A stretch of 64,000 bases of DNA. Origin: Candidatus Woesearchaeota archaeon. GTDB taxonomy: Archaea > Nanobdellota > Nanobdellia > Woesearchaeales > UBA10216. Within the stretch, counting starts at the first letter, position 1, and the number at the start of each line of letters is the position of its first letter. Positions 8 through 58,841 of the stretch are shown here, in pieces. The DNA is taken from the NCBI GenBank assembly GCA_043807015.1, contig JAZDGJ010000028.1:1537-65536 (forward strand). Reading direction: 5' to 3'. A program made the position numbers and the translations under genes. The notes below the pieces were generated by a model. It searched no databases. It was not told the DNA's origin and saw only the letters and a program-made list of their open reading frames with translations.

Positions 8-2581
8 GTGAAAGAATCGCTGCTGATGCAGCTTATGGGCGGCGTGCAGAAAAAAAGAAGTGATGGAATTGTTTCCAGGGGGGATATCCATATTTTGCTT
101 GTTGGAGACCCTGGAGCAGGAAAGTCACAGATACTCAAGAGGATGAGCATGATTGCGCCTAAAGGAAGGTATGTTAGCGGAAAAGGAGTATCTGGAGCAG
201 GCATCACCGCAAGCGTTGTAAAAGACGAATTCCTTGGCGGCTGGAGTTTGGAAGCTGGAGCGTTAGTGCTTGCAAACAACGGCCTGGTAAGCATTGATGA
301 GATGGACAAGATGAGCCATGAGGACAGAGGCGCGATGCATGAGGCGATGGAGCAGCAATGCCTGCATTATGATTCGAGAATCACTCTCGCAGATGGTTCT
401 GAACAGCTAATCGGGGAATATGTGGAAAGGCTAATGAAAGCACATGAGGCAAAAATAATTCACGGAAAAGACTGCTTAATTCTGCCTGCCCACGACTTGA
501 ATTTAAGGATATTCACAACAGATTGGGAAAAAATATGCGAAACAAAAATCAACCGCATTAGCAAACATGTTGCCCCGAAGCAATTCATAAAAATAACGGC
601 AGGCAACGGGAGAACCGTAATAGTCACACCCGAGCACCCCTTCTTCTGCATGAAGAACGGGAAGATTATAACGAAGAGGTCTGACACCATCATGGCAGGT
701 GATTGGGTTCCGGTGCCCCTTAAGCTGCCTGTAGAAGGCGCAAAGCAGTTTTTTAACATTGAAAAAGAGGAAATATTCAATAAAAGGTCAAAACATCACA
801 TCATTGTTCCTGTGAGCAATTGCAGTGATTTCTACAAGCTTATCGGATATATCCTGTCTGAGGGCTCTAAAGAAACAAATAGGGGGAAACAGATAGGGAT
901 AAATTTTACAAACAAGAACCCGCTAGTTTTAGAGGAGTTCTGCAGGCTGATGAAAAAAGTTTTTGGGATTAAGCCTTATAAACAGGCGAGAATTGACGAA
1001 CATGGAACGAGGTGGATGCTCAGATATACATCAAGGGAGCTGGCAGAGTTTATCAGGAAGGCCTGCCCGTCAATAATAGAGAAAGCGAATAGAAAACAGG
1101 TGCCCCAACTGGCAATGAAAGCCAGGAAAAATGACGTTGCCTGCATGTTAACGCGCCTATTTGAAGGCGATGGCCACGTTTCTAAAAAGGAGAGAACCAT
1201 CAGGATCGGTTACACTACCAATAGCGGGGTTCTCGCTGAACAAGTGCAGGATCTTCTCCTGAGGTTCGGAATAAGAAGCAACATAACAAAAAATAAGAAA
1301 ACGCACAAGACGCTCATAACAGGGCGCGACAATTTACTAAAGTTCAACCAAAACATAGGATTTGTCAGCCACAAGAAAAACGAGATTGTAAGGGAGTATC
1401 TCGAGAAAGCGCAGCGCAGCAGAACAGTTAAGGACTTGGTTCCAGAGGTTTCGGAGCACGTCTATGGGCTTCTGAAGAAATATGATGTTAAAGCTGTAGG
1501 GAAATATAAACTCTCTGCTATAAGAGACAACTACATCCGCAGGAGAACGAGCATCCAAAGGAATCAGCTGCAAAAATACGTTATGCTTCTTGAGGGGAAG
1601 GTTTTTGGGAAAGACATGGAACTCCTGCAGAATTTGAGAAAGCTTGCATTTGGGGCGATAGGATTTGAAAAAGTCAGAAACGTGGAAGTAATTGAAAACA
1701 ACGATCAGGTATGGTGTTATGACCTCACTGTAGAGCCGAACCATACTTTTGTATCGCAAAATATGATTTTGCACAACACTGTCAGCATTTCAAAAGCCAA
1801 CATACAGGCGACACTGCTGGCTAAAACAACTGTGCTTGCAGCTGCAAACCCGAAGTTTGGAAGGTTTGACCCGTATGGCATAATTGCAGAGCAGATTGAC
1901 CTTCCGCCTACGCTGATAAACCGTTTTGACTTGATATTCCCAATAAAAGATTTGCCCTCGACAGAAAGGGATGAGAAAATGGCAAGGCATATTTTAAACC
2001 TGCACCAGATGCCTGAGACAGAGCTGCAGGAAATCCCAACTCCGTTTTTGAAAAAATATGTTGCTTATGCGAGGCAGCGAGTATCACCAAAGCTGACAGA
2101 CAGCGCGCTTAACGAGATTAAGGACTTTTATGTAACGATGCGAAACAAGGGCGGCGGAGATGAGAGAGCTGCAAGGGTAATTCCTATTTCTGCAAGGCAG
2201 CTTGAAGCTTTGGTGAGATTATCAGAAGCCTCTGCAAGGGTAAGGCTTTCTGATAAGGTCCTGAAAAAGGACGCCAGGCGTGCAATAGACCTGATTACAT
2301 ACTGTTTGCTCCAGGTTGGCCTTGACAGGGAGACTGGAAAAATTGACATCGACAGGATTGCTACAGGCATCGGCGCTTCACAGCGTGACAAGATATTCCA
2401 GATAAAGGAGATTCTGGCGACGCTTGAGAACAAGATAGGCAAGACAATACCAATTGACGACGTGCTTAAGGCTGCAACAGAGCGCGGCATAGGCGAGAGC
2501 GAGGCAGAGGAGATAATTGAGAAGCTGAAGCGCTCCGGCGACGTCTATGAACCAAGGTTCGGGTTTGTGAGCAAGATTTGA
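8..2581 (+). CDS. mcm: MCM replicative helicase, 5'-truncated by window edge; AAA+ core with Walker A GDPGAGKS, Walker B/sensor region and C-terminal winged helix; host of an intein
   Basis: Extein residues match the MCM AAA+ domain (ILLVGDPGAGKSQ, SIDEMDKM, arginine finger region SRFDLIF, C-terminal WH). The ORF begins at the window edge on a GTG, so the true N-terminus lies upstream. Confidence 0.9.
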   Translation: MKESLLMQLMGGVQKKRSDGIVSRGDIHILLVGDPGAGKSQILKRMSMIAPKGRYVSGKGVSGAGITASVVKDEFLGGWSLEAGALVLANNGLVSIDEMDKMSHEDRGAMHEAMEQQCLHYDSRITLADGSEQLIGEYVERLMKAHEAKIIHGKDCLILPAHDLNLRIFTTDWEKICETKINRISKHVAPKQFIKITAGNGRTVIVTPEHPFFCMKNGKIITKRSDTIMAGDWVPVPLKLPVEGAKQFFNIEKEEIFNKRSKHHIIVPVSNCSDFYKLIGYILSEGSKETNRGKQIGINFTNKNPLVLEEFCRLMKKVFGIKPYKQARIDEHGTRWMLRYTSRELAEFIRKACPSIIEKANRKQVPQLAMKARKNDVACMLTRLFEGDGHVSKKERTIRIGYTTNSGVLAEQVQDLLLRFGIRSNITKNKKTHKTLITGRDNLLKFNQNIGFVSHKKNEIVREYLEKAQRSRTVKDLVPEVSEHVYGLLKKYDVKAVGKYKLSAIRDNYIRRRTSIQRNQLQKYVMLLEGKVFGKDMELLQNLRKLAFGAIGFEKVRNVEVIENNDQVWCYDLTVEPNHTFVSQNMILHNTVSISKANIQATLLAKTTVLAAANPKFGRFDPYGIIAEQIDLPPTLINRFDLIFPIKDLPSTERDEKMARHILNLHQMPETELQEIPTPFLKKYVAYARQRVSPKLTDSALNEIKDFYVTMRNKGGGDERAARVIPISARQLEALVRLSEASARVRLSDKVLKKDARRAIDLITYCLLQVGLDRETGKIDIDRIATGIGASQRDKIFQIKEILATLENKIGKTIPIDDVLKAATERGIGESEAEEIIEKLKRSGDVYEPRFGFVSKI
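359..1777 (+). mobile_element. Intein (about 473 aa) with LAGLIDADG homing-endonuclease domain inserted in MCM after ...AMEQQ
   Basis: Starts with Cys (CLHYDSRITLADGSE, block A) and ends ...ILHN followed by Thr (+1 nucleophile). Two LAGLIDADG-type motifs (LIGYILSEGS and RLFEGDGHV) lie between the splicing blocks. MCM sequence resumes in frame (TVSISKANIQATLLAKT). Confidence 0.8.
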
Positions 2582-3163: not shown

Positions 3164-3565
3164 ATGGATTACGAAAAGCTCCTTGATGTTGCATATGAGA
3201 AAATGCCTAAGGATACACAGACGGCAGACCGGTTCCAGGTTCCTAAGGTGCTTGGGCATGTCCAGGGCAACAGGACAATAATCAGCAATTTCCACCAGAT
3301 AGCTGGCGTTCTCGGAAGAAAGCCCGAGCACGTAATGAAATACGTCTTGAAGGAGCTTGCCGCCCCTGGCGAGCTGAGCAAGACTGCGCTGATAGTCGGC
3401 ACAAAGATTTCTGCATCAAGGGTGAATGAAAAGGTGCAGGATTATGTAAAGAAGTTTGTGTTATGTCCTGTCTGCAAGAGGCCTGACACGGGCTTGAGCA
3501 AGGATGCAGGCGTTACATTTATGTTGTGCTCTGCCTGCGGCTCAAGGCAGGCTATCGGCAGCTAG
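3164..3565 (+). CDS. eif2b: translation initiation factor aIF2 beta subunit
   Basis: MDYEKLLDVAYEKMP...RFQVP...GNRTIISNF start and C-terminal C4 zinc ribbon (CPVCKRPDT...CSACGS). In-frame ATG at 3164 preceded by a TATA-like tttataaag at about -25. Confidence 0.8.
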   Translation: MDYEKLLDVAYEKMPKDTQTADRFQVPKVLGHVQGNRTIISNFHQIAGVLGRKPEHVMKYVLKELAAPGELSKTALIVGTKISASRVNEKVQDYVKKFVLCPVCKRPDTGLSKDAGVTFMLCSACGSRQAIGS

Positions 3566-6500
3566 TTTCTGCTGAAAACCACTTGCCTAGTCCTTCCTGC
3601 CGGTATTTTTCCTTGCCAAACACTTCTTCGACCCTGTTTCGGGTCAGCATGAGGGTCTGCATGAGATATGGTGAGACTGCATATCTCTCTGCAAGGCTTA
3701 TTGCGGGCTCAAGGTATTTTATTATGGTGCCTTCTGAGACTGTAAATATCAGTTTGCCTCCGCAGTTGTCACAGCTTCCTTTAAGAAGAGGTCTTCTGAA
3801 CTTCTTGTTGCATTTGACACACCTGAACTGCTGCGTGGAAAACTTCCTCAGGTTTCCTTTTATGTCCTTGAGAAGGTGCTTTTCTATCACCAGTGTGGCA
3901 ACGTCTTTCTCATCGACTGCCCTTATTTTTTTTGCCAGGTCCATCTGCCCCTTGATTTTCTCTTCCATTGATGGAAGCTTCTTGTATGCTGAAAATGTGA
4001 CTCCTTCGTTTATGCTCGCAAGGTCGTGTGTGAAGCCGATGCCTTCGTACTGCGCCTCTGTGCCGAGCCTTGCGCCGAGCAGCTCGATTTTTACATCTTG
4101 CGGCGCCTTGTATTGAAGCGCCGCTTCATACAACTCAAGAGGATAATGCCACGCAACATCAAACCGGTGAGCCATGTCATCAACTTCAGCAGGGACCAGC
4201 CTCTGTATAAGGACGAGCGGGCTGTCCATTGTCTTTGCGCCCCTGGAATCAGGCAGGAACTGCCTTGAAAAGTTTAGCAGCGCGTCCATCAGGAGAATGA
4301 CGCATGCTTCGTCGCCGTCTGCATCCCTTCTCATTGCCGCATGGAAGAGGGGATGCGCCAGTAATGCCTGCGTTTTTGAAAATCCAATCACTCTTCCAAT
4401 TATGCCTGCAGAAATATGCGGTGCGAGCCCGATTACAAGGTGCCCTACAATGTCTTTTTTCTCCTTCAGGCAGTAGAAGGGCTTCAGGTCGTAAAAGCTT
4501 GTAAGCAGCTCGTCAATAAACTGGGCTTCCCTGAAAAGCACTTCATCAGCTCTTTCATCCGCAGATTCGTAGTTTGCAGGCAGTATCAGGTCTTGGGGTC
4601 TTATCTCAAGAATCTGCTCTTCGCTTTCAAGGGGCATCCCTTTGCAGTCCTTCTCATACCCTAGCTCTTTAAGCTTTTCAACAGGAGTGCCTATTTCACT
4701 GGGCTTGAAATGCGTTATTGGCAACTCGCTCATGTCATATCTCGTTGTGCCGTCCTTGTTGACGAAAAGGTCGTATTTTGCCCTAAGGATGCCCTTGGCG
4801 AGGTTTTCGGGGATATGGTCCTTGTTTGAGGTGCCCCTTACGCCCTTGATAAGGTCAGGATGCGTCTTCATGTTGAGCTTTTTCAGCGCAGCGTCAAAAA
4901 AGTGCCCGATTTTGATGGGCTTGTTCATGAAAGCGGCAGTTTTTCCGTGCTGGCACTCTACCTTGTCTATAACGCCGCATTTTTTGCAGAAATATCTTCT
5001 TCTGGTTGGCTTGGAGCAGGTTTCGCATGTCGGGTATATTGTTTCTGCTGCGCATTTGGGGCAATAAAAGATTGGGAAGTCTGCGATCACCTTTCCGTCT
5101 TCAATAGCTGCGTTGAATGACCTGAGCCTTCCGCCCTCTTCGCCAACAGGGAAAAGGACCTGGGGGCTTCCTGTCAGCTTTCGCATCTTTGCCTTTTCAG
5201 GCCTGCCCATCCTTGCGCCTATGAATGTGCCTCCCCTGTCTCTTATTTTCAGGGGGGAAATTTTGTTCACTATATCGACGCATGATTCCTGCGGCTGAAG
5301 CTCCACAGCAAGATTTTCCCCAAACCTCAGGCATTTTGAAAGCACCTTGAAGTCGCTTGCGCCTATCACGACAAATTCGTTGCTTACCACAGTATGGGGC
5401 AAGCCAATCAGCTCAAGGCTTCTTTTTTCCGGGTTCTGGAGAGGCAAGACGTATTTTTCCCCGCCTCCTTTGAGTTCGCCTCTGCTGAGCCACTTTAGCA
5501 GAAGCTTAAGCTCTTCCTGGGAAATTGCATTCAGGTAATATGTATGCTTCGGATGGAGGGGTACGCCCAGCTTTTCAGATATTTTTATTGCTGTATCGAC
5601 GCTTACAGCCATTGATGGGTTCTTAAGCAGCGTGTTGATTTGCTCTGCCGGCAGCCCTAAATGCTCGGACAGCTTTTCTGCGTCAAGGGCTCCAAACGTG
5701 TTTACAGCAGCTTTTTCAATCTCCTGGACATACCACTCCTCGCAGTAGCCTGCAGGGATGAGCATATGCCCGCGGTCAAAAAAGTCGCCGTAGCTTATTA
5801 GAATGTCGCCAAGATAGAGGATTTCTTCAATCTGCTCACAGTACTGCTTGGCAGCGGACTCAGTTTCCAGCCGCATAACAGAGCCGTCTTTCAGCTTGAC
5901 AATTGGTCCGTCAATTGTTTCGCAGGGCGTAACAGCCGCAGCCTTGCCTGGGCGCTCCATTTTCAATTGTGTGCCTGTTGCTATGAATTTCTCAAGCACA
6001 GCCATTGTTGCAGGAGATAGCGCAATGGCGGAAAAGCCGCTCATTCTGGTTTTGCCATAGCGCATCCTCAGACCGCCCTGCCTTAAGGGAAATGATAGAA
6101 CCGGCCTTCCGGCTACAAGGTCTGAGATGTAGGTGAAATCAGGCGATATTTTCTGGGATGATTTTTCTCCTTGGCTTTTCCTGCTTTTCTGAACTGAGAG
6201 GAATTGTTCAAGAAAGGACCAATTTATTCCAAATTCCCTACCCAACTGGTCAAGGTATTTTTTCATTTTTTGTGCCTTGGCCGCAAGCATTGAAACGACC
6301 AGGCAGACCCCGCCCCTGATGCGGTTTGTCTCAACTCTTGGCAGGTCCTTGTAGTTGCTTACTTCAATCTGCTCAGTTGGTTCGCCGTCAACCTCAATCG
6401 GGAAGTGCTCCATCAGCGTTCTTATTTCATCACGGCTTGGCTTGTACTGCAGGTTTGTGACCCGTTCATGATAGTCTTCCAGCTCGGAAATATAGCGGTT

Positions 6501-7067
6501 AATCTCATTTTCAGTGGGGTCATATTCTGCATACCCCATTTTCATCCTGATGTAATCTGCTATAAGCATGCAAACGCCGATTGCAGTGCCGCCTGCGCCC
6601 CTAATGGGGCCGGCAAATGATGCTGCAAGGTATTCTTTGCCGTCGCGCCTCTTCTTTATTTTCAGCTCTATAAATCCCTCAAGCGGCGCCGAAACTACGC
6701 CGAGGGTATGGTATGCAAACCCTATCCTGATTCCTACTTCCATAGCCTCTTTTTGGCTGCTGAATTTGCAGAATTTCCCCTGCGCCACCTCTTCTGCTAT
6801 CAAGAGGGCCACTTCCCAGGACAATGCGCCATGTTTCTTTTCCAGCTGCTGGATTCTTTTTGAGACGCCTGAATTGACAATTCCTGGGAATATGATTGAG
6901 ACAAGCCCCTCAACGCGCTCTGCCATGTTTTTTGTCAGCGGGATGTCAACATCCAGCTCAGGGTCTAGGCCTTTCTTTCTTGCTTCTGTGGCAACAGAAT
7001 ACCCCCGCTTTAGTTTGACCTCTACCTCTGAAAAATACCTTTCAATGCCGGGGCTGGCTTCACTCAT
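3552..7067 (-). CDS. dp2: DNA polymerase II (PolD) large subunit DP2
   Basis: Protein of 1171 aa with the conserved DP2 architecture, including the C-terminal Zn module (CVKCNKKFRRPLLKGSCDNCGG). Overlaps the dp1 stop by 8 nt (operon). No intein. Confidence 0.85.
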   Translation of the reverse strand: MSEASPGIERYFSEVEVKLKRGYSVATEARKKGLDPELDVDIPLTKNMAERVEGLVSIIFPGIVNSGVSKRIQQLEKKHGALSWEVALLIAEEVAQGKFCKFSSQKEAMEVGIRIGFAYHTLGVVSAPLEGFIELKIKKRRDGKEYLAASFAGPIRGAGGTAIGVCMLIADYIRMKMGYAEYDPTENEINRYISELEDYHERVTNLQYKPSRDEIRTLMEHFPIEVDGEPTEQIEVSNYKDLPRVETNRIRGGVCLVVSMLAAKAQKMKKYLDQLGREFGINWSFLEQFLSVQKSRKSQGEKSSQKISPDFTYISDLVAGRPVLSFPLRQGGLRMRYGKTRMSGFSAIALSPATMAVLEKFIATGTQLKMERPGKAAAVTPCETIDGPIVKLKDGSVMRLETESAAKQYCEQIEEILYLGDILISYGDFFDRGHMLIPAGYCEEWYVQEIEKAAVNTFGALDAEKLSEHLGLPAEQINTLLKNPSMAVSVDTAIKISEKLGVPLHPKHTYYLNAISQEELKLLLKWLSRGELKGGGEKYVLPLQNPEKRSLELIGLPHTVVSNEFVVIGASDFKVLSKCLRFGENLAVELQPQESCVDIVNKISPLKIRDRGGTFIGARMGRPEKAKMRKLTGSPQVLFPVGEEGGRLRSFNAAIEDGKVIADFPIFYCPKCAAETIYPTCETCSKPTRRRYFCKKCGVIDKVECQHGKTAAFMNKPIKIGHFFDAALKKLNMKTHPDLIKGVRGTSNKDHIPENLAKGILRAKYDLFVNKDGTTRYDMSELPITHFKPSEIGTPVEKLKELGYEKDCKGMPLESEEQILEIRPQDLILPANYESADERADEVLFREAQFIDELLTSFYDLKPFYCLKEKKDIVGHLVIGLAPHISAGIIGRVIGFSKTQALLAHPLFHAAMRRDADGDEACVILLMDALLNFSRQFLPDSRGAKTMDSPLVLIQRLVPAEVDDMAHRFDVAWHYPLELYEAALQYKAPQDVKIELLGARLGTEAQYEGIGFTHDLASINEGVTFSAYKKLPSMEEKIKGQMDLAKKIRAVDEKDVATLVIEKHLLKDIKGNLRKFSTQQFRCVKCNKKFRRPLLKGSCDNCGGKLIFTVSEGTIIKYLEPAISLAERYAVSPYLMQTLMLTRNRVEEVFGKEKYRQEGLGKWFSAETSCR

Positions 7068-8493
7068 AGGAATCAGCCCCGAACTTCAAGATTTTTACAT
7101 CCCTTGTGTGGAGGTTTATTACAGGCACTCTTGCAGGCTCAGGATTGTGCCCCAGCTTTTCCTGGAAAGGCGTCTTGGACTGCCAGCATGAGCCGCATAT
7201 CAGCGTCACATTCTTGTAATGCGATGCTGAGGTTTTGTGAAGATGCCCTGTGGCAAATATGTCGGGCACAATGTCTATGAACAAGGGGTCTTTTTCAGCA
7301 TCAGGAAGGTAGAGCGTTGACGTGTGCGATGGCGCGAGGTGCCTTCTCTTCAGAAGGAACTTCATCACAAGGTCTGCACGGTCATACCCACCTTTCTGCC
7401 TGATGGAATCAATATTTGCGATGTAGTAGTCAAAGCTGTATCCGTGGTAGACGAGCACATTAAGCCCGGAGAATGAATTGCTCGAGTCTATGTTTACAAG
7501 AGCCGGGTTTGAAATGAGTGTTACGTTCGGCATTTTTGCAAGCCTTGCTGAAAACTCTCCTGCAAATGGGGGCTGGGGCTCTGAAATGCGCATTGCATCG
7601 TGGTTGCCCGGGCACATAATTATCTGTATGTGGCTTGGAATCTGCTCCATTAGCCTGGCATACTCTTCGTATTGGGCATAAATATCTGTGATTTTCAGCT
7701 CCGCCTGCTGGTTTGGGTAGACGCCGATTCCATCAACAGCGTCGCCTGCCATAAATATGTATTTGACCTTTAAGGCAATGTCTTTTTGGGTTTCGCTGCC
7801 AAGGTTGCCATTAACCCATTTAATGAAGCGCTCAAATTCTGCCGAGAGAAACATCTCTGAGCCAACATGCAAATCTGAAAGGAAAACCGCATACCCCTCT
7901 TCAGGTGATTTTTTCAGGGTTGCTTGGGTTATGATGTCAGGAAAAATTATGTTGTTTGCAAACATTATGTCCTGCTTAATGCTTCCAGTAATGCCAATAA
8001 TCTCGTCGTGAACAATCTCCTTTGCGGTTTGCAGAAGCTCTTTTTTTGTGCTGCTTACAAGCACCTTAATCAAACCCGTCCTGTCCTCAATCGTCAGCAT
8101 AATATTGCCGCTCTTGGTCTCATGTTTGTCGTAAACCGCGCCGATTATGGAAATGCTGTCCGCAGGTCTTCCTCTCACCCGGCTTATGGAGGTTATGTTA
8201 GAAAGCCCCTGCCTGTTGATGAGGAGCGATTCTATCAGAGAGTACCTTGAGTTAAAATATGAGATAAAGTCCTGGGCGTGCCTTTTCTGCGGCTTCTTGT
8301 TATACGAGAAAACCACTTTGACGTTGGCTGCGCTCTGCTTTTGGGCGGTTTTTTCCCCTGCTTTCCAGTCCATGTTATGCTCTTCAATCTCAACATATCC
8401 TTTTTCCTCAAGCTGGCTCAGCAGTTCTGGGGTCACCAGTATGTTCTGCCTCATTAATTGAGCCACTTTTGCTTTTTTTTCTTCAATTTCCAT
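7060..8493 (-). CDS. dp1: DNA polymerase II (PolD) small subunit DP1 (calcineurin-like phosphoesterase / exonuclease)
   Basis: OB-fold plus metallophosphatase motifs (GDAVDG, GNHD, GHLH). ATG at 8493 (MEIEEKK) chosen over the upstream extension that would overlap orc1. Confidence 0.85.
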   Translation of the reverse strand: MEIEEKKAKVAQLMRQNILVTPELLSQLEEKGYVEIEEHNMDWKAGEKTAQKQSAANVKVVFSYNKKPQKRHAQDFISYFNSRYSLIESLLINRQGLSNITSISRVRGRPADSISIIGAVYDKHETKSGNIMLTIEDRTGLIKVLVSSTKKELLQTAKEIVHDEIIGITGSIKQDIMFANNIIFPDIITQATLKKSPEEGYAVFLSDLHVGSEMFLSAEFERFIKWVNGNLGSETQKDIALKVKYIFMAGDAVDGIGVYPNQQAELKITDIYAQYEEYARLMEQIPSHIQIIMCPGNHDAMRISEPQPPFAGEFSARLAKMPNVTLISNPALVNIDSSNSFSGLNVLVYHGYSFDYYIANIDSIRQKGGYDRADLVMKFLLKRRHLAPSHTSTLYLPDAEKDPLFIDIVPDIFATGHLHKTSASHYKNVTLICGSCWQSKTPFQEKLGHNPEPARVPVINLHTRDVKILKFGADSYE

Positions 8494-8500
8494 TTTAAAC

Positions 8501-9736
8501 CTATATCTGCAGTGCAGATGCAAGGGTCTGCTGGAGCCTGGACGCTGTCTCGGCGGGTATTGAGACCTTAATTTCCCTTGTTCGCCCATACCTTCCTTTT
8601 GAAATAACCCGTGCAGTTATTACCCCCAGCATGTCAAGCTCTGAAACCATGTCAGAAAGCCTTCTTTGCGTTAGTGGCCTAAGCCCTGTTTTGCCGCAAA
8701 TCTCTTTATACAGCTCATAAACTTCGCCCGTGAATATGAGATGTGATTTTTTTTGGTCGTTTATCAGCAGTATTGCATAAAGGGCAGCCTGCATCTGGGA
8801 AGGCTGCGTTATTATAGCCTCAAATATTTTATCCCTGTCAATTTTGTTTTCCGCCTCATCAACGTTTTGTATCCGCACTTTGTCTTGGTTGTTTCGCTCT
8901 GCAAGCTCAGCAGCAACTCTGAGCAGTTCTAACGCTCGTCTTGCGTCGCCGTGCTCCATTGCGGCATATGCCGCACACTTTGCTATTACCCCTTCTTCCA
9001 GAGATCCTTCCCTAAACGCCACGTTTGCCCTTTCCTCAAGGATATCCTTAATCTGCAGGGCGTTATAAGGGGGGAATAGGATTTCCTCTTCAGATAATGA
9101 TGATTTCACCCTCGGGTCAACGTGGTCTATGAATGTCAGGTCATTGGAGATGCCAATGATGGTTATTTTGGAGTGCTTTAGCTCCTCATTCATCCTGCTT
9201 ATCGTGTAAAGTATGCCGTCGCCGGTTTTTTTCACCAACTGGTCTATCTCGTCCAGGACAATTATCATATTTTTCCCCGATTCATCCACAACACTGAAGA
9301 ACGTCTTGTAAATCTCTTCAGTTGGAAGCCCTGTTGGTGGTAGTTTTCTTCCGCATTTTTCTGAGAGATGCGCTATCAGTCGGTATTCTGTGTCTGCGAC
9401 TTTTTTAAGCTTGCAGTTGACATAAATACCGCCGAGGTTTATCTGGTTTTGCGCCGCAGTTGCTATCAGATAATTGAGCACATATTGGACAGAAACCGTT
9501 TTGCCCGTGCCCGTTTTGCCGTATATGAAAATGTTGGACGGTTTTTCAGATTTCAGCGCCGGAGCCAATATGTTTGCAATTTGGTTGATTTCCCCGCCCC
9601 TGTGCGGGATTTTTTCCGGGGTGTAAGCGGACTGAAGAAATTGTTTGTTTGAGAAGAACGATTGTTTCTTGAGGTATTCACCAAAGAACGCGCCTAAACC
9701 CTGTTGTTGCTTTTCTGGCACCAAAAACACCCCCAC
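8501..9736 (-). CDS. orc1: Orc1/Cdc6 origin recognition / initiator protein
   Basis: YTPEKIPHRGGEINQIANIL...IYGKTGTGKT Walker A, DEID Walker B, C-terminal winged helix. Starts on GTG at 9736 directly abutting the predicted origin. Confidence 0.9.
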   Translation of the reverse strand: MGVFLVPEKQQQGLGAFFGEYLKKQSFFSNKQFLQSAYTPEKIPHRGGEINQIANILAPALKSEKPSNIFIYGKTGTGKTVSVQYVLNYLIATAAQNQINLGGIYVNCKLKKVADTEYRLIAHLSEKCGRKLPPTGLPTEEIYKTFFSVVDESGKNMIIVLDEIDQLVKKTGDGILYTISRMNEELKHSKITIIGISNDLTFIDHVDPRVKSSLSEEEILFPPYNALQIKDILEERANVAFREGSLEEGVIAKCAAYAAMEHGDARRALELLRVAAELAERNNQDKVRIQNVDEAENKIDRDKIFEAIITQPSQMQAALYAILLINDQKKSHLIFTGEVYELYKEICGKTGLRPLTQRRLSDMVSELDMLGVITARVISKGRYGRTREIKVSIPAETASRLQQTLASALQI

Positions 9737-9756
9737 ACCCCTGTTTCCTTTGGAAC
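9728..9756 (-). repeat. ORB-like box 1 (TCCAnnGGAAACAGGGG-type, G-string)
   Basis: Reverse complement reads gttccaaaggaaacaggggtgtgggggtg. Confidence 0.45.
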
Positions 9757-10002
9757 ATGGGTGATGCGCGCTGTTTATAAAATACGTGTATATTTAAAGG
9801 TTATCTTTAAAAATGTATTTTTGAGAACAACAATTCTCCGTCCATATATATTATTTTCAATATTGAAAATATAAATAAAATAAAATAAACACCCACACAC
9901 CCCAAAAAACACAACAGCTATCTCCATGAGAAACAGGGGGGTAGGTCTTTCTGAGTTTGCGTGTCGCCACTGGGGAATAACAAAAAACAAAAGCTTTAAA
10001 TA
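9737..10002. promoter_or_regulatory. oriC: predicted replication origin (oriC): AT-rich unwinding region flanked by inverted ORB-like G-string boxes, adjacent to orc1-polD operon
   Basis: Positions 9790-9885 are very AT-rich. Flanking boxes are gttccaaaggaaacaggggtgtggggg (minus orientation, 9728-9756) and ctccatgagaaacaggggggtagg (plus, 9921-9945). They share GAAACAGGGG in inverted orientation, resembling archaeal ORB / mini-ORB. Confidence 0.5.
9921..9945 (+). repeat. ORB-like box 2, inverted relative to box 1
   Basis: tctccatgagaaacaggggggtagg. An upstream cacccacacacccc (9890-9903) mirrors the cacccccacacccc at 9728-9741. Confidence 0.45.
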
Positions 10003-10026
10003 TTGAATCGGGTTATCTTATCAACC

Positions 10027-10821
10027 ATGTTACTACAAAACGAATCACTACATCAATTAAAAGACTTCGGTCTTAACAGCTACGAGTCAAAACTCTGGCT
10101 AGCCCTCCTTTCCAGAGGCGCTGCAACCGCCGGCGAACTTTCTGATATAGCGAATGTCCCCAGGTCGAGGAGCTATGATGTTCTTGAGAGCCTTGAGAAA
10201 AAAGGATTCATAATGGTCAAGATAGGCAAGCCGATAAGATATATGGCAGTCCAGCCTGAGCACGTTATTGAGAGAGTTAAGAAGCGGATTGCAGAAGAGG
10301 CTGATGAGCGCATTGGTGTAATCTCTAAAATACAGGAAAGCGCCCTGTTGGATGAGCTGAATCTGCTCCACAATTCAGGAGCGAAGACCATAGATCCGTT
10401 GGAGCTGTCAGGCACGATAAAAGGCAGAAAGAATATCTATTCCCGCCTTGACATCGCCGCCAAACAGGCAGAAAAGGAGATAATCATTTCCACAACCGCC
10501 GACGGGCTGAAGAGAAAAAGTGATATTTTTAAGAACACTTTCAGGAAGGCAAAAAGCCACGGTGTTAAGATAAAAATTATTGCGCCAACAGAAGACCTCA
10601 ATTCCTACGGAGAGCTCGCCTCTGTTGCCGAGATCCGCAGCTCGCCGATAGAGGGAAGATACTGGATTATTGACGGCGAGCAGGTGTTTTTCATGCTTTC
10701 CAAAGACGTGCCAAACCAGGCGTATGATTCAGCAATTTGGGTGACATCCCCCTTCTTTGTTTCCTCTTTCAAAGCGCTGTTTGACAGGGCCTGGGGAAGC
10801 CTCAAACAGGCAAAAGCATAA
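10027..10821 (+). CDS. TrmB-family transcriptional regulator, TrmBL2-like size (264 aa), copy 1
   Basis: N-terminal HTH YESKLWLALLSRGAATAGELSDIANVPRSRSYDVLESLEKKGF. TATA gctttaaatatt at about -25 of ATG 10027. The ORF-track start 10003 is a TTG. Confidence 0.75.
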   Translation: MLLQNESLHQLKDFGLNSYESKLWLALLSRGAATAGELSDIANVPRSRSYDVLESLEKKGFIMVKIGKPIRYMAVQPEHVIERVKKRIAEEADERIGVISKIQESALLDELNLLHNSGAKTIDPLELSGTIKGRKNIYSRLDIAAKQAEKEIIISTTADGLKRKSDIFKNTFRKAKSHGVKIKIIAPTEDLNSYGELASVAEIRSSPIEGRYWIIDGEQVFFMLSKDVPNQAYDSAIWVTSPFFVSSFKALFDRAWGSLKQAKA

Positions 10822-10887: not shown

Positions 10888-11112
10888 ATGCCGGCGGATC
10901 TTCAAGTTATTACGTTGTCTGTGATAATAGGCACTCTTGCAGCGATAGTGTATTCGCTCAGGATACTGGTTCTTATGGAGCGCAGGATTGCAAGGATGGA
11001 TGAGAATCTCGTTGCAATCACCAAGCGTGTTGCTATAGAGGAAGTGAAGATTGAGAGGGAAGAGCAGAAGATTGAGAATATTTTTGGAAAAAGGAAGGGA
11101 AAAAGGCGCTAA
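10888..11112 (+). CDS. small single-pass membrane protein with charged coiled C-tail
   Basis: ATG 10888 preceded by gagaggtg SD-like and TATA ctttttaaac. One TM (ITLSVIIGTLAAIVYSL). Confidence 0.35.
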   Translation: MPADLQVITLSVIIGTLAAIVYSLRILVLMERRIARMDENLVAITKRVAIEEVKIEREEQKIENIFGKRKGKRR

Positions 11113-11606
11113 GCCTTTTCTTTTATCTTTTTTAATTCATTTTCAAGCAACTTAATTTTATCTCTATTATCCTCTTCGCAGAGGATTTCGCCGCATTCCG
11201 GGCATCTGAATTCAAATTCAAACGCTTTTTCAAAATCAAGCCTGACGCACTTGCGCTGGCACTGTAAATAGCCGCTGGCCCGCTCCCTCTTCAAGCGCTC
11301 TGATATCAGGTCTTCTTTCTGTGTTTTAAGCATTTTGGCAAGGTGCGGCGCATTTTCAGGTGAGAGCGTCCAGTAGTATATGTACCACCCTTTTTTCTTA
11401 TCTTTTTTCCTGATGAATGAAGCGAGATTAAGGCTGTAAAGCTTGTAAAGGGAATTCCTCGTGGCGTTCACATCCCTGTTTATCTTGTCGGCCAGCTTGA
11501 ACTCAGAAAAATTTTTCCTGCCTTTCATAGCCTTGACTACGGGCAGAATGTCTTCCCCCAGCTCTTCCACGACTACTGCCTCTAGCAAATCCAGGTTTTT
11601 TTCCAT
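11109..11606 (-). CDS. tfe: transcription factor E (TFE / TFIIE-alpha homolog), copy 1
   Basis: Winged helix (SEFKLADKINRDVNATRNSLYKLY) plus zinc ribbon (CPECGEILCEED). Confidence 0.75.
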   Translation of the reverse strand: MEKNLDLLEAVVVEELGEDILPVVKAMKGRKNFSEFKLADKINRDVNATRNSLYKLYSLNLASFIRKKDKKKGWYIYYWTLSPENAPHLAKMLKTQKEDLISERLKRERASGYLQCQRKCVRLDFEKAFEFEFRCPECGEILCEEDNRDKIKLLENELKKIKEKA

Positions 11607-23687: not shown

Positions 23688-24641
23688 ATGAGCACGTTGT
23701 GGGCGGAGAAGTACAGGCCTTCTGATTTTTCTGAAATAGTCGGCCAGGATGAGATAGTCAGCAGGCTGAAGGCTTTCGTCAAGCAGAAGAACATGCCCCA
23801 TCTTCTGTTTGCAGGTCCTCCTGGAGTGGGTAAGACCAGTGCAGCCTTGGTTGTTGCGAAGAAGCTTTATGGCGAGAGCTGGCGTGAGAATGTTCTTGAG
23901 CTTAATGCTTCTGATGAAAGAGGCATTGATGTGATTCGTGTCAAGGTCAAGGACTTTGCAAGGACAAAGTCAATGGGTGATGCGCCTTTCAAGATTTGCC
24001 TTCTTGACGAGTGCGACTCACTGACAAAGGAAGCCCAGCAAGCCTTGAGAAGAACGATGGAAAATTACTCAAATACCTGCAGGTTCATACTTCTTGCAAA
24101 TTACTCTTCAAAAATCATTGACCCCATACAGAGCAGGTGCGCTGTATTCAGGTTCAAGCTTCTGCCGAAGGAAAGCATATTCAAAATCATTGACGAAATC
24201 ATCAAACATGAAGGGCTGAAGATTGATGAAAAGGCAAAGGAAGCGCTTTACATAGTCAGCGAAGGCGACTGCAGGCGCCTTGAGAATGTTCTCCAGAGCT
24301 CTGCTTCGGTTTCCCAAACCATTACGTCAGAAACAATATACTCTGTCGCGAGCGTTGCAAAACCAAAAGAAATAAAAGAGATAATTTCCTTGGCTTTGAA
24401 TAACAAGTTCATTCCTGCTAGGGAAAAGCTTATAGAAACAATGCTCTCTTACGGGCTTTCAGGGCTTGACATCATAAAGCAGATCCAGAAGGAAGCTGTT
24501 GAGCTTGATGTTGAGTCTTCAAAGAAGATGAAGATAATTGAGAACTGCGCTGAAATAGAGTTCAGGATGGTTGAGGGCGCAGACGAGTTTGTCCAGCTCG
24601 AGGCATTGTTAAGCAGTATAGCGTCCTTAAATGACAAGTGA
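23688..24641 (+). CDS. rfcS: replication factor C small subunit
   Basis: WAEKYRP...LLFAGPPGVGKTS Walker A, DECD Walker B, SRC motif (QSRCAVFRF). ATG 23688. The ORF-track start is TTG. Confidence 0.85.
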   Translation: MSTLWAEKYRPSDFSEIVGQDEIVSRLKAFVKQKNMPHLLFAGPPGVGKTSAALVVAKKLYGESWRENVLELNASDERGIDVIRVKVKDFARTKSMGDAPFKICLLDECDSLTKEAQQALRRTMENYSNTCRFILLANYSSKIIDPIQSRCAVFRFKLLPKESIFKIIDEIIKHEGLKIDEKAKEALYIVSEGDCRRLENVLQSSASVSQTITSETIYSVASVAKPKEIKEIISLALNNKFIPAREKLIETMLSYGLSGLDIIKQIQKEAVELDVESSKKMKIIENCAEIEFRMVEGADEFVQLEALLSSIASLNDK

Positions 24642-26655
24642 AAAAAGAGGGGTTTGGGAGGAGCATGCTTCTAGTGAGAGTCCTTTATCTAGAAACCTTC
24701 AGGACCAAGCCGCTGAAATTCTGAGAAAACAGCTTGACAAGTCGATAAGCGCGCAGGAAAGCATTCATTCAGAGCTGAAAAGCCAGCTCGCACTCAAGGA
24801 AAAAGACATTGAAACCCTGAAGTCAATAATCCTGAGAAAAAATCAGGAGGTTGCAGCCCTTTCAAAAAGCCTGCAGGCAAAAAACGAGACAGACGAATAT
24901 TACGTCAAACGCCTGAAAGAGGCGCTTCTGAAAAAAGATGCCGCCAACCAGCAGATTTTCTCAAGCCTGAGGCAGCAGCTCTCTGCGAAAGACGAGGAAA
25001 TCAGGAAAAAGGGGTTTTCCTCAACAGAATCCAGCAGGGCAAATGAGCAGCTTCTGAAACAGCTGAATGAGCATCTTGCCCAGGCATATGAGCAGATTGA
25101 CCAGCTCAAGACTTTTGTCGCTAATGAGACAGCGCGCTCGGAAAACCTTTCCAATGTCTTTGAAAAAGAGATTGCTGAAAAGGAAGCCATCATCGCAGGG
25201 CTGCAAAAGTCAAAGCTTAATGCCAGCGGCAATTCTGCCCTGGCAGCGCAGTTGGAGCAGTCTGAAAGAAAACTGAAGGAGAAAGAGGCAACCTGCAGGA
25301 ATCTCCAAATGGAGCTTGCAAAGCTGAGATACCATCATGAAGACGTGTCAAGGCAGCTGCAGGAAAAAGACAACATGCAGGATTATCCCGATTATGGAAC
25401 GCAAATAGGCGTCCTTAAGATGAGCCTTGCTGAAAAGGATTCTGAAATAAAGCGCCTTGAGGCAGCAGCATTTGAAGCACACCGCTCCAATGAGAGAATT
25501 GCCCGGCAGCTGAATGCCCAGCTTAGAGAGGCATATGAAGAAATAGACCAGCTCAAGCATTTTGTTACTTCAGAATCTGTTAAATCCTCAGGTCTTGAAG
25601 AGGAGTTTGACAAGCAGCTTGCGGAAAAGGACGCAAGGATAGCTGAGCTTGAACAGAGCCTTAGGGAAAGCTCAAGACCGAAGTCTTCAGGCAGGGAAAC
25701 CGCTGAATTAAAGCAGCTCCTGAGCGTGAAAGAAGAGAGCTCTGCAGCTTTGCAGGCAGACCTGCTGAAGCTTAAAGCCCAGAACACCAACCTTTCAAGA
25801 AAGCTTGAAACCAGCAGAAAGATGATTGCCCAGAGCGAAGAAAATTTTGCAAAGCTGGCTGAGGAGATCAACTCCCAGCACCAGCAGCGAATCAAGGATT
25901 TGATAACGAAAAATTCAGTAAATGAGGCTGCGCTAAGGTCAGAAATGGAGCAGATCAAGGCTGAGATGAAAAAGAAAGACAGCCTCATTGAGGCTGAAAC
26001 CCTTAAGGTTGATGATGCTTTGACCCAGTTCTCTGTCAAGTACCAGCAGCTTCTCAAGCTGAGAAACTCAGAGGGAATGGTTTCTCACGTTGAAGAGATT
26101 GAGAAATCCAGGATTGAAAAAGAAAACATGTCTGAGCTTCTGAAGGACGCAGAGGCAAAGCTTCAGCGCGCAATTGAGAGGGAAGCTGCTGTTGACAGGA
26201 GAGAGCAGATGATTATGAAAGAGCAGGACGCCATAAACAAGCAGCTTGACCTGTTGAACGCAGCAGGCTTTGAAATCGGCAGGACTAAGGATTATCTGAA
26301 GAAGAAGCTTGCCGAAGTTGAGCTGCCTGCGCCTGAAAGCCTGGCTTCTGTGATGGAAGAGTTTTCCACAGAGCACGTTCCTGAAGAGATACGGATGGAA
26401 ATTCCCGCGCCAGAGAAGCTAATGCCTGTGCAGAGGCTAAAACCAGCGGAAAAGCCAAAGCTCTTCCAACCCAAGAAAGAGGAATTCTTCAACGCAAACA
26501 CATATTCTGAGATTGACGAGCTTAAGTCAGTCATTGAGATAGCAACCCAGCAGGGCGAATCCCTTGAAAAGGTAAGGCAGTCGCTTATCGACTCAGGCTA
26601 CTCAAAAGCCAGCATAGAAAAAGCCTTCAGCAGCATGCAGACTGTTAAGCGGTAG
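24631..26655 (+). CDS. large coiled-coil protein with internal ~70-aa tandem-diverged repeats; function unknown
   Basis: 674 aa, almost entirely heptad/charged. Repeat A ...AYEQIDQLKTFVANETARSENLSNVFEKEIAEKEAIIAGLQKS and repeat B ...AYEEIDQLKHFVTSESVKSSGLEEEFDKQLAEKDARIAELEQSL. Start overlaps the rfcS stop by 11 nt. Confidence 0.6.
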   Translation: MTSEKRGVWEEHASSESPLSRNLQDQAAEILRKQLDKSISAQESIHSELKSQLALKEKDIETLKSIILRKNQEVAALSKSLQAKNETDEYYVKRLKEALLKKDAANQQIFSSLRQQLSAKDEEIRKKGFSSTESSRANEQLLKQLNEHLAQAYEQIDQLKTFVANETARSENLSNVFEKEIAEKEAIIAGLQKSKLNASGNSALAAQLEQSERKLKEKEATCRNLQMELAKLRYHHEDVSRQLQEKDNMQDYPDYGTQIGVLKMSLAEKDSEIKRLEAAAFEAHRSNERIARQLNAQLREAYEEIDQLKHFVTSESVKSSGLEEEFDKQLAEKDARIAELEQSLRESSRPKSSGRETAELKQLLSVKEESSAALQADLLKLKAQNTNLSRKLETSRKMIAQSEENFAKLAEEINSQHQQRIKDLITKNSVNEAALRSEMEQIKAEMKKKDSLIEAETLKVDDALTQFSVKYQQLLKLRNSEGMVSHVEEIEKSRIEKENMSELLKDAEAKLQRAIEREAAVDRREQMIMKEQDAINKQLDLLNAAGFEIGRTKDYLKKKLAEVELPAPESLASVMEEFSTEHVPEEIRMEIPAPEKLMPVQRLKPAEKPKLFQPKKEEFFNANTYSEIDELKSVIEIATQQGESLEKVRQSLIDSGYSKASIEKAFSSMQTVKR

Positions 26656-26791
26656 TTCTAGCAACATCAGACTGCGGCAATTGACAGATATAGGCTAAAT
26701 AAACTGCTCGAGCTTACACTGTCGCCTGCAGAATACACAGCAACGAACAACTCTTCTGTCAATTAGTTACTAAAAAAAGAGAAAGTTCTGC

Positions 26792-27808
26792 TCAGCCGAG
26801 CAGGCGCTGTACAATCAGGCTTGAGGATCTTACCTCGCTGTAGTCGAACAACACTTCGATAAGTACTTCTCTTACAGCATCCACCTGGGCGTTGTTGGCA
26901 ATTTTGCAGCTGACCATAGCATTGCCCTGGTTGTCAAGCCTCACTGCACCCTTGTTCTTTTGATCGCCGCTTGATGACAGGCCATAGCAGGTGATTTTGA
27001 CCCGGTCTTCTGGGGGGGTGGCGGGGTCTTCTGGCACTCCGACAGTTACGTTTACAATGTTCTGGTCACTCACTTTGCTGCCGGCAGTTTGACCGCAGAC
27101 TGCGCCTTCATTGTCTGGTGACCACTTGAATACATTGCCGTTGCCTTTCTTTGATATCCTGAAATTGATGTTAATGGTGTTCCCTCCAGCAAAGCTCTCT
27201 ACAAGCGAATCAACTCCTATCGGCGATGCAGAGCTGAATATCTCCTTTGGACCTGATGCCTCACAAACTCCTGCAACAGTTGAGACGGGGTTCTGCCTGA
27301 GGCAGTATTTCCCGCTTGCCATTGTTTTATACGAATAGCATACATTAGTCTGTATTGGCAGCTCTATATTTCCTGCGCTTAGCGAGCGCTTGAACGCGAG
27401 TTGTTTTCCTTCTGTTTTCGGAATTATCACTTGCGCCGTCATGCCCTGTATTTTATTGCCTGCAGAATCCTTCTTCATCCCAATAATATCATCTTCATTT
27501 GAGTTGCTTAGTTCAGATTGAGCAACGCCAAAGTCCGAAGGGTACAGCCCCGAGATAGTCACATTGGCTTTTTTCTTCGATATGTTTGCCTCTCCGGCGT
27601 TCTCAAGGAGGACAACTATCTGGAATGGGAATTGCCCTCCGTCAGACACCTGTGCCGGAGGGGAATTGTCAAGGAAACTTATAAGCAATCCATTTGTGCC
27701 CCCTATGTAGGGGGTACCCGTTGAAGTTGTTCCGCTATCACCAGTCTGGCATCCTGCCAAAAAAAGAATTGATATTATAACTGCTGTTATTAAGATAAAG
27801 TTTTTCAC
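26792..27808 (-). CDS. secreted lipoprotein LP1 (lipobox LFLAGC), Cys-rich beta-type domain; paralog of LP2
   Basis: MKNFILITAVIISILFLAGCQT signal/lipobox. Six further Cys. GTG start homologous to the LP2 ATG. TATA tttatttaaag about 25 nt upstream. Confidence 0.6.
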   Translation of the reverse strand: MKNFILITAVIISILFLAGCQTGDSGTTSTGTPYIGGTNGLLISFLDNSPPAQVSDGGQFPFQIVVLLENAGEANISKKKANVTISGLYPSDFGVAQSELSNSNEDDIIGMKKDSAGNKIQGMTAQVIIPKTEGKQLAFKRSLSAGNIELPIQTNVCYSYKTMASGKYCLRQNPVSTVAGVCEASGPKEIFSSASPIGVDSLVESFAGGNTININFRISKKGNGNVFKWSPDNEGAVCGQTAGSKVSDQNIVNVTVGVPEDPATPPEDRVKITCYGLSSSGDQKNKGAVRLDNQGNAMVSCKIANNAQVDAVREVLIEVLFDYSEVRSSSLIVQRLLG

Positions 27809-27826
27809 GCACTCTTTTTGGCATCT

Positions 27827-27838
27827 TTTTATTTAAAG
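27827..27838 (-). promoter_or_regulatory. TATA box of LP1 promoter
   Basis: Minus-strand ctttaaataaaa about 25 nt upstream of the start. Confidence 0.45.
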
Positions 27839-27908
27839 CTTTCTGTACATCTATTCTTTAGTTTATTCTAAAAGCATAATTTAAGAAAATAAAAATAACG
27901 ATCAGCCC

Positions 27909-28898: not shown

Positions 28899-28920
28899 AT
28901 GCCCTCCTTTTGTATTTTGC

Positions 28921-28930
28921 TATTTAAAGT
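28921..28930 (-). promoter_or_regulatory. TATA box of LP2 promoter
   Basis: Minus-strand ctttaaatag about 28 nt upstream of ATG, followed by ggaggg SD-like. Confidence 0.45.
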
Positions 28931-28941
28931 TTTCTATTTAA

Positions 28942-29940: not shown

Positions 29941-29946
29941 GACTCA

Positions 29947-32187: not shown

Positions 32188-32350
32188 TTCCTCTTTTTTT
32201 ATTCCTCGCTCTATCCCTGAGATTTCTCATTTATAAACTTGTTTATTTGCTGCAGCTTTGGCAACAGTAAGTGGCAGTCGCGGTAGTAGTCGTTACGGCT
32301 ACTACTAAGATTCGTAGTAGTAGAAGTCGTAGCTTGAATGAAGAACCAGT

Positions 32351-33505: not shown

Positions 33506-33559
33506 GCAGTTACTTTTAACAGTTAGATATATAAATGCTTTTCTCTTTTCACAGTGGTT

Positions 33560-57679: not shown

Positions 57680-57741
57680 AGAAACGGGAAATCAAGCCAC
57701 GCTTTTAAGGTTTATTAAAAGAATAAGTCAGAAAACAAGAT

Positions 57742-58682: not shown

Positions 58683-58841
58683 CGTCCTAACCTTCTAACT
58701 ATGTTTTAGTGCGAACGAGAGCCCAATCCCTAACAACCATAGGCTCTTGCACCCCCGGCACTCTTACTGGTGTTTTAGATATAAATACATTCTGCTTCTG
58801 AAATATATATTTCAGATAATTATTTTCTATATTGAATATTA

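Follow-up and report, generated by a model that had tools for sequence, protein, structure and literature searches.

A probable Orc1/Cdc6-dependent, oriC1-type replication origin with two inverted origin recognition boxes in an uncultivated Woesearchaeote

The stretch of DNA analysed here (the window, 64,000 nucleotides (nt) of contig JAZDGJ010000028.1) contains a 305-bp gap between an orc1/cdc6 initiator gene on the minus strand and a gene for a TrmB-like regulator on the plus strand, and this gap is a candidate replication origin. From its sequence we consider it likely, with a probability of roughly 0.8, that the locus is an Orc1/Cdc6-dependent chromosomal replication origin of the oriC1 type, belonging to an uncultivated Woesearchaeote. 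The locus combines an adjacent orc1, two origin recognition boxes (ORBs), an AT-rich DNA unwinding element (DUE) and the order ORB(-)/DUE/ORB(+), and the arrangement is conserved in relatives. Observed here are the anatomy of the sequence, the statistical uniqueness of the site within the window, its conservation among relatives and the initiator's orthology to Orc1-1. The initial annotation had predicted an oriC with inverted ORB-like boxes upstream of orc1, and the match to known ORBs, together with uniqueness, conservation and Orc1-1 orthology, supports that prediction.

The two boxes lie in opposite orientations on either side of the AT-rich centre. ORB-L (9757-9728, minus strand; TGTTCCAAAGGAAACAGGGGTGTGGGGGTG) contains the core TTCCAAAGGAAAC at 9755-9743, a first G-string at 9741-9738 and an extended GT/G-string at 9737-9728. 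ORB-R (9921-9945, plus strand; TCTCCATGAGAAACAGGGGGGTAGG) contains the core CTCCATGAGAAAC at 9922-9934 and a G-string at 9936-9941. In both boxes the core is followed by an A and a G-run, and the G-strings point away from the AT-rich centre, that of ORB-L towards orc1 and that of ORB-R towards trmB. Judged by sequence, these are canonical ORBs, with a TTCCA-N3-GAAAC core and then a G-string; the published consensus is CTTCCAGTGGAAACGAAAGGGGT for archaea and GTTCCAGTGGAAAC-AAA----GGGGG for euryarchaea. The decamer GAAACAGGGG, described earlier as shared by two inverted boxes, is present in both and belongs to sites that match this consensus. It occurs exactly twice in the 64 kb, both times in the boxes, with 0.10 copies expected by shuffling and two copies reached in none of 100 shuffles. 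The core pattern TCCANNNGAAAC likewise occurs exactly twice in the window, both times at this locus and both times followed by a G-run.

A position-weight model built from relatives (a softened core plus a G-string after a spacer of 0-4 nt; cut-off at least 18 bits) further separates the two boxes from the rest of the window. ORB-L scores 26.2 bits and ORB-R 24.8 bits, and the next best of the 128,000 window positions reaches 17.3 bits. When the Woesearchaeal core model is applied by itself, ORB-L scores 17.9 and ORB-R 16.5 bits, in comparison with 15.8-16.7 bits for published consensus ORBs. The search for more ORB copies that the initial annotation had called for, carried out over the 64-kb window, thus returns two sites, both of them here, and the generic G-rich repeat scattered along the sequence that it had feared is not borne out. 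Beyond the two ORBs, no further core of at least 6 bits is found in the intergenic region. There is also no second ORB cluster in dp1, where the best nearby site (14.9 bits at 7168) is at background level. The ORBs and the DUE of the proposed ORB/mini-ORB plus DUE architecture therefore hold, and its mini-ORB arrays do not.

The pair is reported by a repeat finder as inverted repeat I1 (23 nt, 78% complementary, arms 168 nt apart). An imperfect inverted repeat of 23 nt that encloses about 170 bp of AT-rich DNA, with G-runs present, is also what the ends of a small mobile element might look like, or a chance or G-quadruplex-type G-rich repeat. We regard this explanation as highly improbable, as the repeat has no other copy in the 64 kb, no canonical G-quadruplex motif occurs anywhere in the window, and relatives with an Orc1 identity of only 51-70% keep both the motif and its position at the orthologous site. 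An Rfam scan of the whole window also returned no match, so that no known RNA family explains the GC-rich parts of the gap.

The DNA between the two boxes includes the least stable part of the window. The spacer as a whole (9758-9920, 163 nt) has 28% GC against 46% overall, and within it we place the AT-rich DUE at 9772-9889. The DUE core at 9790-9889 has 16% GC (84% AT), which agrees with the core of about 100 bp and more than 80% AT noted earlier, and is the most AT-rich 100 nt of the window. Its nearest-neighbour free energy (dG) of -103.7 kcal/mol, compared with a window mean of -137.5 and a standard deviation of 5.8, also makes it the least stable 100 nt, by about 5.8 standard deviations.

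Directly inside ORB-R, on the minus strand at 9890-9903, is an orphan G-string, GGGGTGTGTGGGTG, without an ORB core. Extended by the following three bases (TTT), it matches the tail of ORB-L (GGGGTGTGKGGGTGTTT on the minus strand) at 16 of 17 nt. The orphan G-string and the A-tracts on both sides of it make 9872-9917 nearly pure A/C on the plus strand. The C-strings at 9728-9741 and 9890-9903 had been described as mirrored, but both are C-rich on the plus strand and form a direct repeat. We considered and rejected the orphan G-string as a third, degenerate ORB: it has no core, and isolated G-strings are not clearly enriched in relatives (GGGGTGTG only about 2.7-fold), the orphan G-string not being a conserved feature.

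The arrangement of orc1, ORBs and AT-rich spacer recurs among relatives. We compared 133 orc1 loci from Woesearchaeota and Pacearchaeota, 69 from genomes and 64 from metagenomes. The metagenome loci played no part in model building and constitute an independent validation set; the metagenome scan contained no relative closer than about 62% Orc1 identity, which ruled out fine-scale footprinting, and the loci were used for validation instead. With the orc1-upstream region taken as 800 bp, the genome set contains 92 ORBs in 53.6 kb of upstream sequence and 6 in 385 kb elsewhere, an enrichment of about 110-fold, with at least one ORB in 57 of the 69 loci and at least two in 31. The validation set gives the same picture, with 91 ORBs upstream against 3 elsewhere (about 140-fold) and at least one ORB in 60 of 64 loci. 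Similarly, the core pattern TCCANNNGAAAC occurs 42 times in 484 kb from 80 related loci, 32 of them within -500 to +30 of the orc1 start. The aligned core sites of the relatives yield TTTCCAYANGAAACNAAGGGGTG, and the clade ORB consensus is TTTCCAYANGAAAYNAAGGGGTG. A strict pattern, GAAAC-N0-4-GGGG, retrieved few sites on the related loci and was set aside as too narrow, and a search for enriched 8-mers in the upstream regions returned AT-rich words only.

The polarity of the boxes is conserved as well. Measured from the orc1 start, the ORBs of the relatives have median positions of -85 on the orc1 strand and -294 on the opposite strand. A divergent ORB pair is found in 46 loci, 25 from genomes, with an AT-rich spacer, and 21 from metagenomes; in the 25 genome loci the spacer has a median length of 235 nt and a GC content of 0.16, compared with 0.34 for the locus. 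The closest relative by Orc1 (locus L010, about 70% identity in the species-genome search) has a TTTCCAAAAGAAACGAAGGTG box just before orc1 and a TTTCCACACGAAACGAACGGG box on the other strand 164 nt away, with AT-rich DNA between them, so that its inter-ORB spacer of 164 nt compares with 163 nt in the window. Four other loci (L004, L030, L061 and L071) have strong ORBs about -2300 to -2700 from orc1 that do not adjoin it, in L071 as an inverted pair. ORBs at such a distance (more than 2 kb) suggest either a gene inserted between origin and initiator or a second ORB cluster.

The adjacent initiator is, by sequence comparison, an ortholog of Orc1-1. It matches Orc1-1 of S. solfataricus (2QBY_A) with E = 3.5e-107 and ORC1 of A. 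pernix (2V1U) with E = 1.7e-95, the two initiators that have been crystallised on ORB DNA. Its identity to Orc1-1 is about 55% and becomes near-complete in the winged-helix segment RRLSDMVSELDMLGVITARVISKGRYGRTREI and the VKSSLSEEEI region. Among 185,579 species genomes, Orc1 finds its best matches in metagenome-assembled genomes that bear the label Woesearchaeota, Nanoarchaeota or Pacearchaeota, alongside some that appear mislabelled, and all named homologs of ribosomal protein L3 are from Woesearchaeota or Nanoarchaeota. On these two lines of evidence the host is a DPANN archaeon, a Woesearchaeote, and the euryarchaeal likening of the initial annotation does not apply to the organism.

These features suggest how the locus would work. 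The two opposite-polarity ORBs would bracket the 163-bp AT-rich unwinding element, and each would bind one Orc1 monomer made from the adjacent gene, with the winged helix on the inner TTCCA-N3-GAAAC core and the AAA+ initiator-specific motif on the outer G-string. The two initiators would then face each other across the DUE and load MCM onto the AT-rich stretch that separates them; the MCM gene lies at the left end of the window, 7 kb away. In a published review, too, two initiators are expected to turn their winged-helix domains towards each other across the DUE, and MCM to be loaded between them. Orc1 bound to ORB-L would in addition repress the orc1-polD operon.

This last step follows from the position of ORB-L relative to the orc1 promoter. 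The orc1 gene (8501-9721, minus strand; Pfam Cdc6_C, Cdc6_lid and AAA) is the first gene of an orc1-dp1-dp2 operon, and its longest open reading frame (ORF), according to the ORF list and Pfam, covers 8501-9736 on the same strand. No ATG is found near the 5' end. Translation probably starts at the GTG at 9721, 7 nt downstream of ORB-L, because the N-terminus of the closest relative, MSDKENQHDLGEFF, aligns with [M]PEKQQQGLGAFF; the Shine-Dalgarno-like GGGGGTG run of ORB-L, 6 nt upstream of this GTG, also favours it. The earlier statement that the orc1 GTG overlaps the first box is thus correct for the GTG of the longest ORF (9736), and the likelier start at 9721 would fall 7 nt beyond the box. 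The TATA-like box TTTATAAA, assigned to the promoter of the orc1 operon, lies at 9774-9781 on the minus strand, 18 nt upstream of the ORB-L core, and in the closest relative an identical TTTATAAA, with CAGCGC after it, stands 17 nt ahead of the orc1-proximal ORB. Given this position and the usual archaeal distance from TATA box to start, the orc1 transcript is predicted to begin inside ORB-L. ORB-L would thus cover both the predicted transcription start and the ribosome-binding G-run, and binding of Orc1 should therefore repress the orc1-polD operon. In five relatives (L012, L020, L026, L034 and L046) we further note a third, opposite-strand ORB-like core at the orc1 start, fused to a TATA-like box (reverse complement CTTTATATACC-N-GTTTCATGTGGAA), which is consistent with autoregulation by Orc1 of its own promoter.

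The overlap of ORB-L with the predicted transcription start and the Shine-Dalgarno-like G-run of orc1 raises the alternative that the ORB pair is only an Orc1 autoregulatory operator of orc1-polD, and the site a relic or dormant origin in a chromosome that replicates from elsewhere or by a recombination-dependent route. The absence of a skew step at the site and the mostly head-on genes to its right (see below) are compatible with this, as are the dormant ORB origins and origin-independent growth documented in other archaea. One promoter site would suffice for an operator, however, and there would be no need for another ORB, inverted and 163 nt away on the far side of the least stable DNA. The paired arrangement is moreover kept in dozens of relatives despite a variable spacer sequence, and autoregulation and origin function can coexist. 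We therefore judge an operator without origin function to be unlikely.

Several observations nonetheless weigh against reading the locus as an active origin. Over the 64 kb, the cumulative GC skew has no minimum, extremum or step at 9.8 kb and follows the gene strand. In a regression on third-codon-position skew, the side-of-origin coefficient is 0.011 (95% bootstrap interval -0.028 to 0.053); the left side contributes only five genes. On the right side, 13 of 41 genes are co-directional with a fork leaving the origin, and the ribosomal-protein operon at 44-55 kb would meet such a fork head-on. The spacer between core and G-string is 1 nt, counted to the first G, compared with 3-4 nt in the consensus (in ORB-R it becomes 3 nt if the first two G are counted as spacer), and the locus has only two ORBs and no mini-ORB arrays. 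Two papers (PMC5663688, PMC11005403) report that Thermococcus species can grow without using their ORB origin, so that the presence of an ORB origin does not prove its use, and a further origin may exist elsewhere in the genome. Binding by Orc1, loading of MCM, autoregulation and origin firing would each follow the pattern of characterised homologs, on which we rely for them. Because only 10 kb lie to the left of the site and archaeal skews are often weak, a point also made in the Thermococcales paper, we take skew and gene orientation to neither support nor refute an origin.

Apart from the question of the origin, third-position GC skew expressed on the plus strand is for the most part positive at about 21-43 kb, whatever the gene orientation, and negative, again in both orientations, at 55-64 kb (Hef, -0.26; the plus-strand gene at 61229-61855, -0.25). 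This contrast between 19-43 and 55-64 kb may reflect noise or a change of composition close to the ribosomal-protein operon.

What is new about the locus is a single detail, a conserved palindrome at the centre of the unwinding region, possibly a new lineage-specific sub-element. In the window it is a perfect 20-bp palindrome, TATTTTCAAT|ATTGAAAATA (in full TATTTTCAATATTGAAAATA; repeat I15), at 9852-9871 within the DUE. About 45% of related origins conserve it between their ORBs, with the consensus ATTATTTTCWATATWGAAAATAAT. The pattern TTCAATAT[AT]GAA has 16 occurrences in 104 kb of sequence upstream of orc1 and none in 651 kb elsewhere. A symmetrised model of 28 nt (cut-off at least 16 bits) finds 57-58 matches in about 130 orc1-upstream regions (57 in 128) and 5 in the 651 kb elsewhere; shuffles that keep the composition in 50-nt blocks give 0.37 matches, with a maximum of 2. 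The palindrome lies between the ORBs in all 32 cases in which both ORBs are detected. In the window, 59.5 nt separate its centre from ORB-R and 104.5 nt separate it from ORB-L, closely matched by 59.5 and 105.5 nt in the closest relative, and in the most compact relatives it is about 42-50 nt from each ORB. The left flank of the palindrome is T-rich and the right flank A-rich, with the switch at its centre (paired t-test, p = 2.6e-4, n = 47).

We tentatively propose that this 20-24-bp palindrome, ATTATTTTC-WATATW-GAAAATAAT, is a new functional origin element in one Woesearchaeal clade, a proposal we hold as possible and at less than even odds. Two readings of such an element can be given. The palindrome may be a symmetric nucleation point at which two MCM hexamers are loaded and melting starts, in which case, given the switch from T-rich to A-rich flanks at its centre, each departing helicase would track along a T-rich strand. 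Alternatively, it may be the site of a dimeric accessory origin factor, for which the adjacent TrmB-like protein is the obvious candidate. The palindrome is not strictly origin-specific, as indicated by a second copy, TAATTATTTTCTATATTGAATATTATTA, at 58817-58844 (25.4 bits), in the second most AT-rich spot of the window. This copy adjoins a perfect 18-bp palindrome, CTGAAATATATATTTCAG (the pair spans 58798-58844), and lies upstream of a TFE-like gene (58173-58682, minus strand), in the interval between that gene and the stop codon of Hef; no ORB is found near it.

Other explanations of the palindrome fared less well. It was rejected as a TATA box or bidirectional promoter, since its centre in the window is CAATATTG and not TATATA and its distance to both gene starts is variable. 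It was also rejected as a conserved hairpin, since inspection of the sites shows deviations in the two halves that are mostly not compensatory. A further candidate copy, TTTAAATATTGAA, at the trmB TATA box (repeat D6) falls below the threshold of the palindrome model. The palindrome is not among the motifs described for WhiP origins, and its sequence has no match in the searchable literature.

The divergent neighbour deserves separate consideration, as it is of the TrmB family and trmB neighbours and palindromes correlate (odds ratio 7.6, p = 1.6e-6, with shared ancestry uncontrolled). Boxes and palindrome could on this basis be operators of the divergent TrmB-like regulator, or generic elements of a divergent promoter, unrelated to replication. 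The gene with its TATA-like box occupies 9995-10821 on the plus strand (ATG at 10027; Pfam TrmB), divergent from orc1. The TATA-like box, TTTAAATA, lies at 9995-10002, 24 nt before the ATG and 50 bp outside ORB-R, in the promoter AAAAAACAAAAGCTTTAAATA; the string AAAAAACAAAA-SC-TTTAAATA and the TrmB N-terminus are both conserved in the closest relative. The trmB promoter is therefore not inside the origin, as the initial annotation had it, its TATA-like box standing outside the second box rather than between the boxes. Both promoters thus have their own conserved TATA boxes elsewhere in the gap. Furthermore, the boxes match the ORB consensus, and 31 of the 38 loci without a trmB neighbour still have ORBs, which assigns the ORBs to orc1 and not to trmB. 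The palindrome itself is 134-632 nt from the trmB start in relatives (84-408 nt from the orc1 start), which argues against a promoter-proximal operator, and its position follows the ORBs. With this evidence we consider TrmB operators or generic promoter elements very unlikely, if somewhat less so than a mobile element or chance repeat, and retain the ORB/DUE/ORB origin as the preferred reading.

Comparison with characterised origins places the locus in a well-known class, that of orc1-adjacent ORB/DUE/ORB origins, in which it is otherwise ordinary. In its ORB sequence and its initiator it is closest to the crenarchaeal oriC1. The oriC1 of Sulfolobus/Saccharolobus and of Aeropyrum pernix shares the adjacency to the initiator gene, a dyad core TTCCA-N3-GGAAAC with a GGGG(T) G-string, opposite-polarity ORBs around an AT-rich DUE and an initiator like 2QBY_A and 2V1U. 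The crenarchaeal oriC1, however, has three to four ORBs, compared with only two in the window, and the window differs further in its DPANN host, the shorter gap between core and G-string, the GT-interrupted double G-string of ORB-L and the conserved palindrome inside the DUE. The tail of ORB-R, GAAAC-AGG-GGGGT, also aligns with the tail of the published ORB2 of Methanomassiliicoccales (M. alvus), GAAAC-AGA-GGGGT.

In its minimal two-ORB design with outward G-strings, the locus is closest to the haloarchaeal oriC1. The oriC1 of Haloferax volcanii and the minimal oriC1 of Haloarcula hispanica have two inverted ORBs with outward G-strings, as here. In the H. hispanica minimal oriC1 two ORBs are sufficient and both are essential, and the top strand has a C-run at the left ORB and a G-run at the right. 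The likeness may extend to the long G/GT stretches after the ORBs (GGGGTGTGGGGG in ORB-L and GGGGGG in ORB-R) and to a G-rich element directly inside the ORBs. In position and polarity, the orphan G-string at 9890-9903 resembles arm IV of the inner G-rich enhancer repeat of H. hispanica oriC1, but the inner G-rich element of the window has one convincing arm (9890-9903), against GGGTG at 9759-9763, and is not conserved in relatives. The long G-string specific to halophiles is absent.

The position of the locus is that of the Thermococcales oriC (Pyrococcus abyssi and P. furiosus), which likewise lies upstream of a cdc6-dp1-dp2 operon and has two long inverted ORBs. In ORB-L the second G-run begins 8 nt beyond the core, the same distance as in the ORB of P. 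furiosus (GGAAAT-GAAACTCT-GGGGGG). The Thermococcales, in contrast, have 13-bp mini-ORB arrays and a second ORB cluster inside dp1, both absent from the window, whose origin is far more compact (a 305-bp intergenic region) and belongs to a different phylum. In the scheme of DoriC, Ori-Finder 2 and Ori-Finder-Arch, the locus would count as a Type I, initiator-adjacent prediction with ORB(-)/DUE/ORB(+), a pattern reported for 67% of predicted CDC6-type origins; automated CDC6-type predictions already extend to Nanobdellota. The features of a WhiP-type origin, TACTACTACTAC inverted repeats and the TTATACAAAC motif, are both absent from 9000-10500 with one mismatch allowed.

Many of the genes around the locus are concerned with replication and repair. 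The polD genes DP1 (7060-8589) and DP2 (3552-7067), both on the minus strand, overlap or abut orc1 and form one operon with it. The assignment of an orc1-dp1-dp2 operon beside a trmB-like gene is confirmed by Pfam for all four products (Orc1/Cdc6, DP1, DP2 and the TrmB family). DP1 follows orc1 in 70 of the 71 relatives with enough downstream sequence, and trmB is the divergent neighbour of orc1 in 42 of the 111 with enough upstream sequence. The window as a whole is a replication-gene island (MCM, PolD, FEN1, RFC with its small subunit, PriS, Hjc and Hef) that also encodes TFE, a Cas4/Dna2-like nuclease and a ribosomal-protein operon. The MCM gene (8-2581, plus strand), which is cut by the window start, contains an intein with a LAGLIDADG homing-endonuclease domain inside its P-loop domain.

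Some further features of the window are recorded here. Pfam gives no match at E <= 1e-5 for six consecutive long ORFs at 24631-33589 (674, 338, 329, 332, 746 and 412 amino acids); the first, which overlaps the end of the gene for the RFC small subunit, might encode a divergent large subunit of RFC. At 57320-58113 on the minus strand are two tandem paralogous small genes (119 and 123 amino acids), both of which begin with MGIEARVKAA and carry the flanking string AGATTCAGGCAGATTGAGGGGTTAAG at their 3' ends (57311-57345 and 57737-57766), and the pair looks like a recent tandem duplication of about 425 bp. The window also contains two full-length TrmB-family paralogs (10027-10821 and 36680-37501) and two TFE-like genes, one identified by Pfam (11109-11606) and the other by sequence inspection only (58173-58682).

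DPANN archaea are almost entirely uncultivated, and the searchable literature contains neither an experimentally mapped DPANN replication origin nor anything relevant to DPANN and ORBs together. A Woesearchaeal ORB consensus or a central palindrome is likewise not described in the texts consulted, the supplementary motif tables of the Ori-Finder-Arch preprint aside. For complete Nanobdellota genomes, the current practice is simply to rotate them to the orc1 gene. The locus supplies a precise coordinate and a consensus for the clade, with which genomes could be oriented, growth rates read from metagenomic coverage, and replicating vectors designed. The compact two-ORB origin with its central palindrome is also a simple candidate for in vitro reconstitution of MCM loading. 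In the most compact relatives, the order is ORB, about 47 nt, palindrome centre, about 47 nt, ORB, and such a spacer of about 95 bp would, if true, make a minimal archaeal origin. More broadly, the Orc1-1/ORB system with crenarchaeal-like ORBs is kept in Woesearchaeota and Pacearchaeota, which supports the view that this type of origin is ancestral in Archaea.

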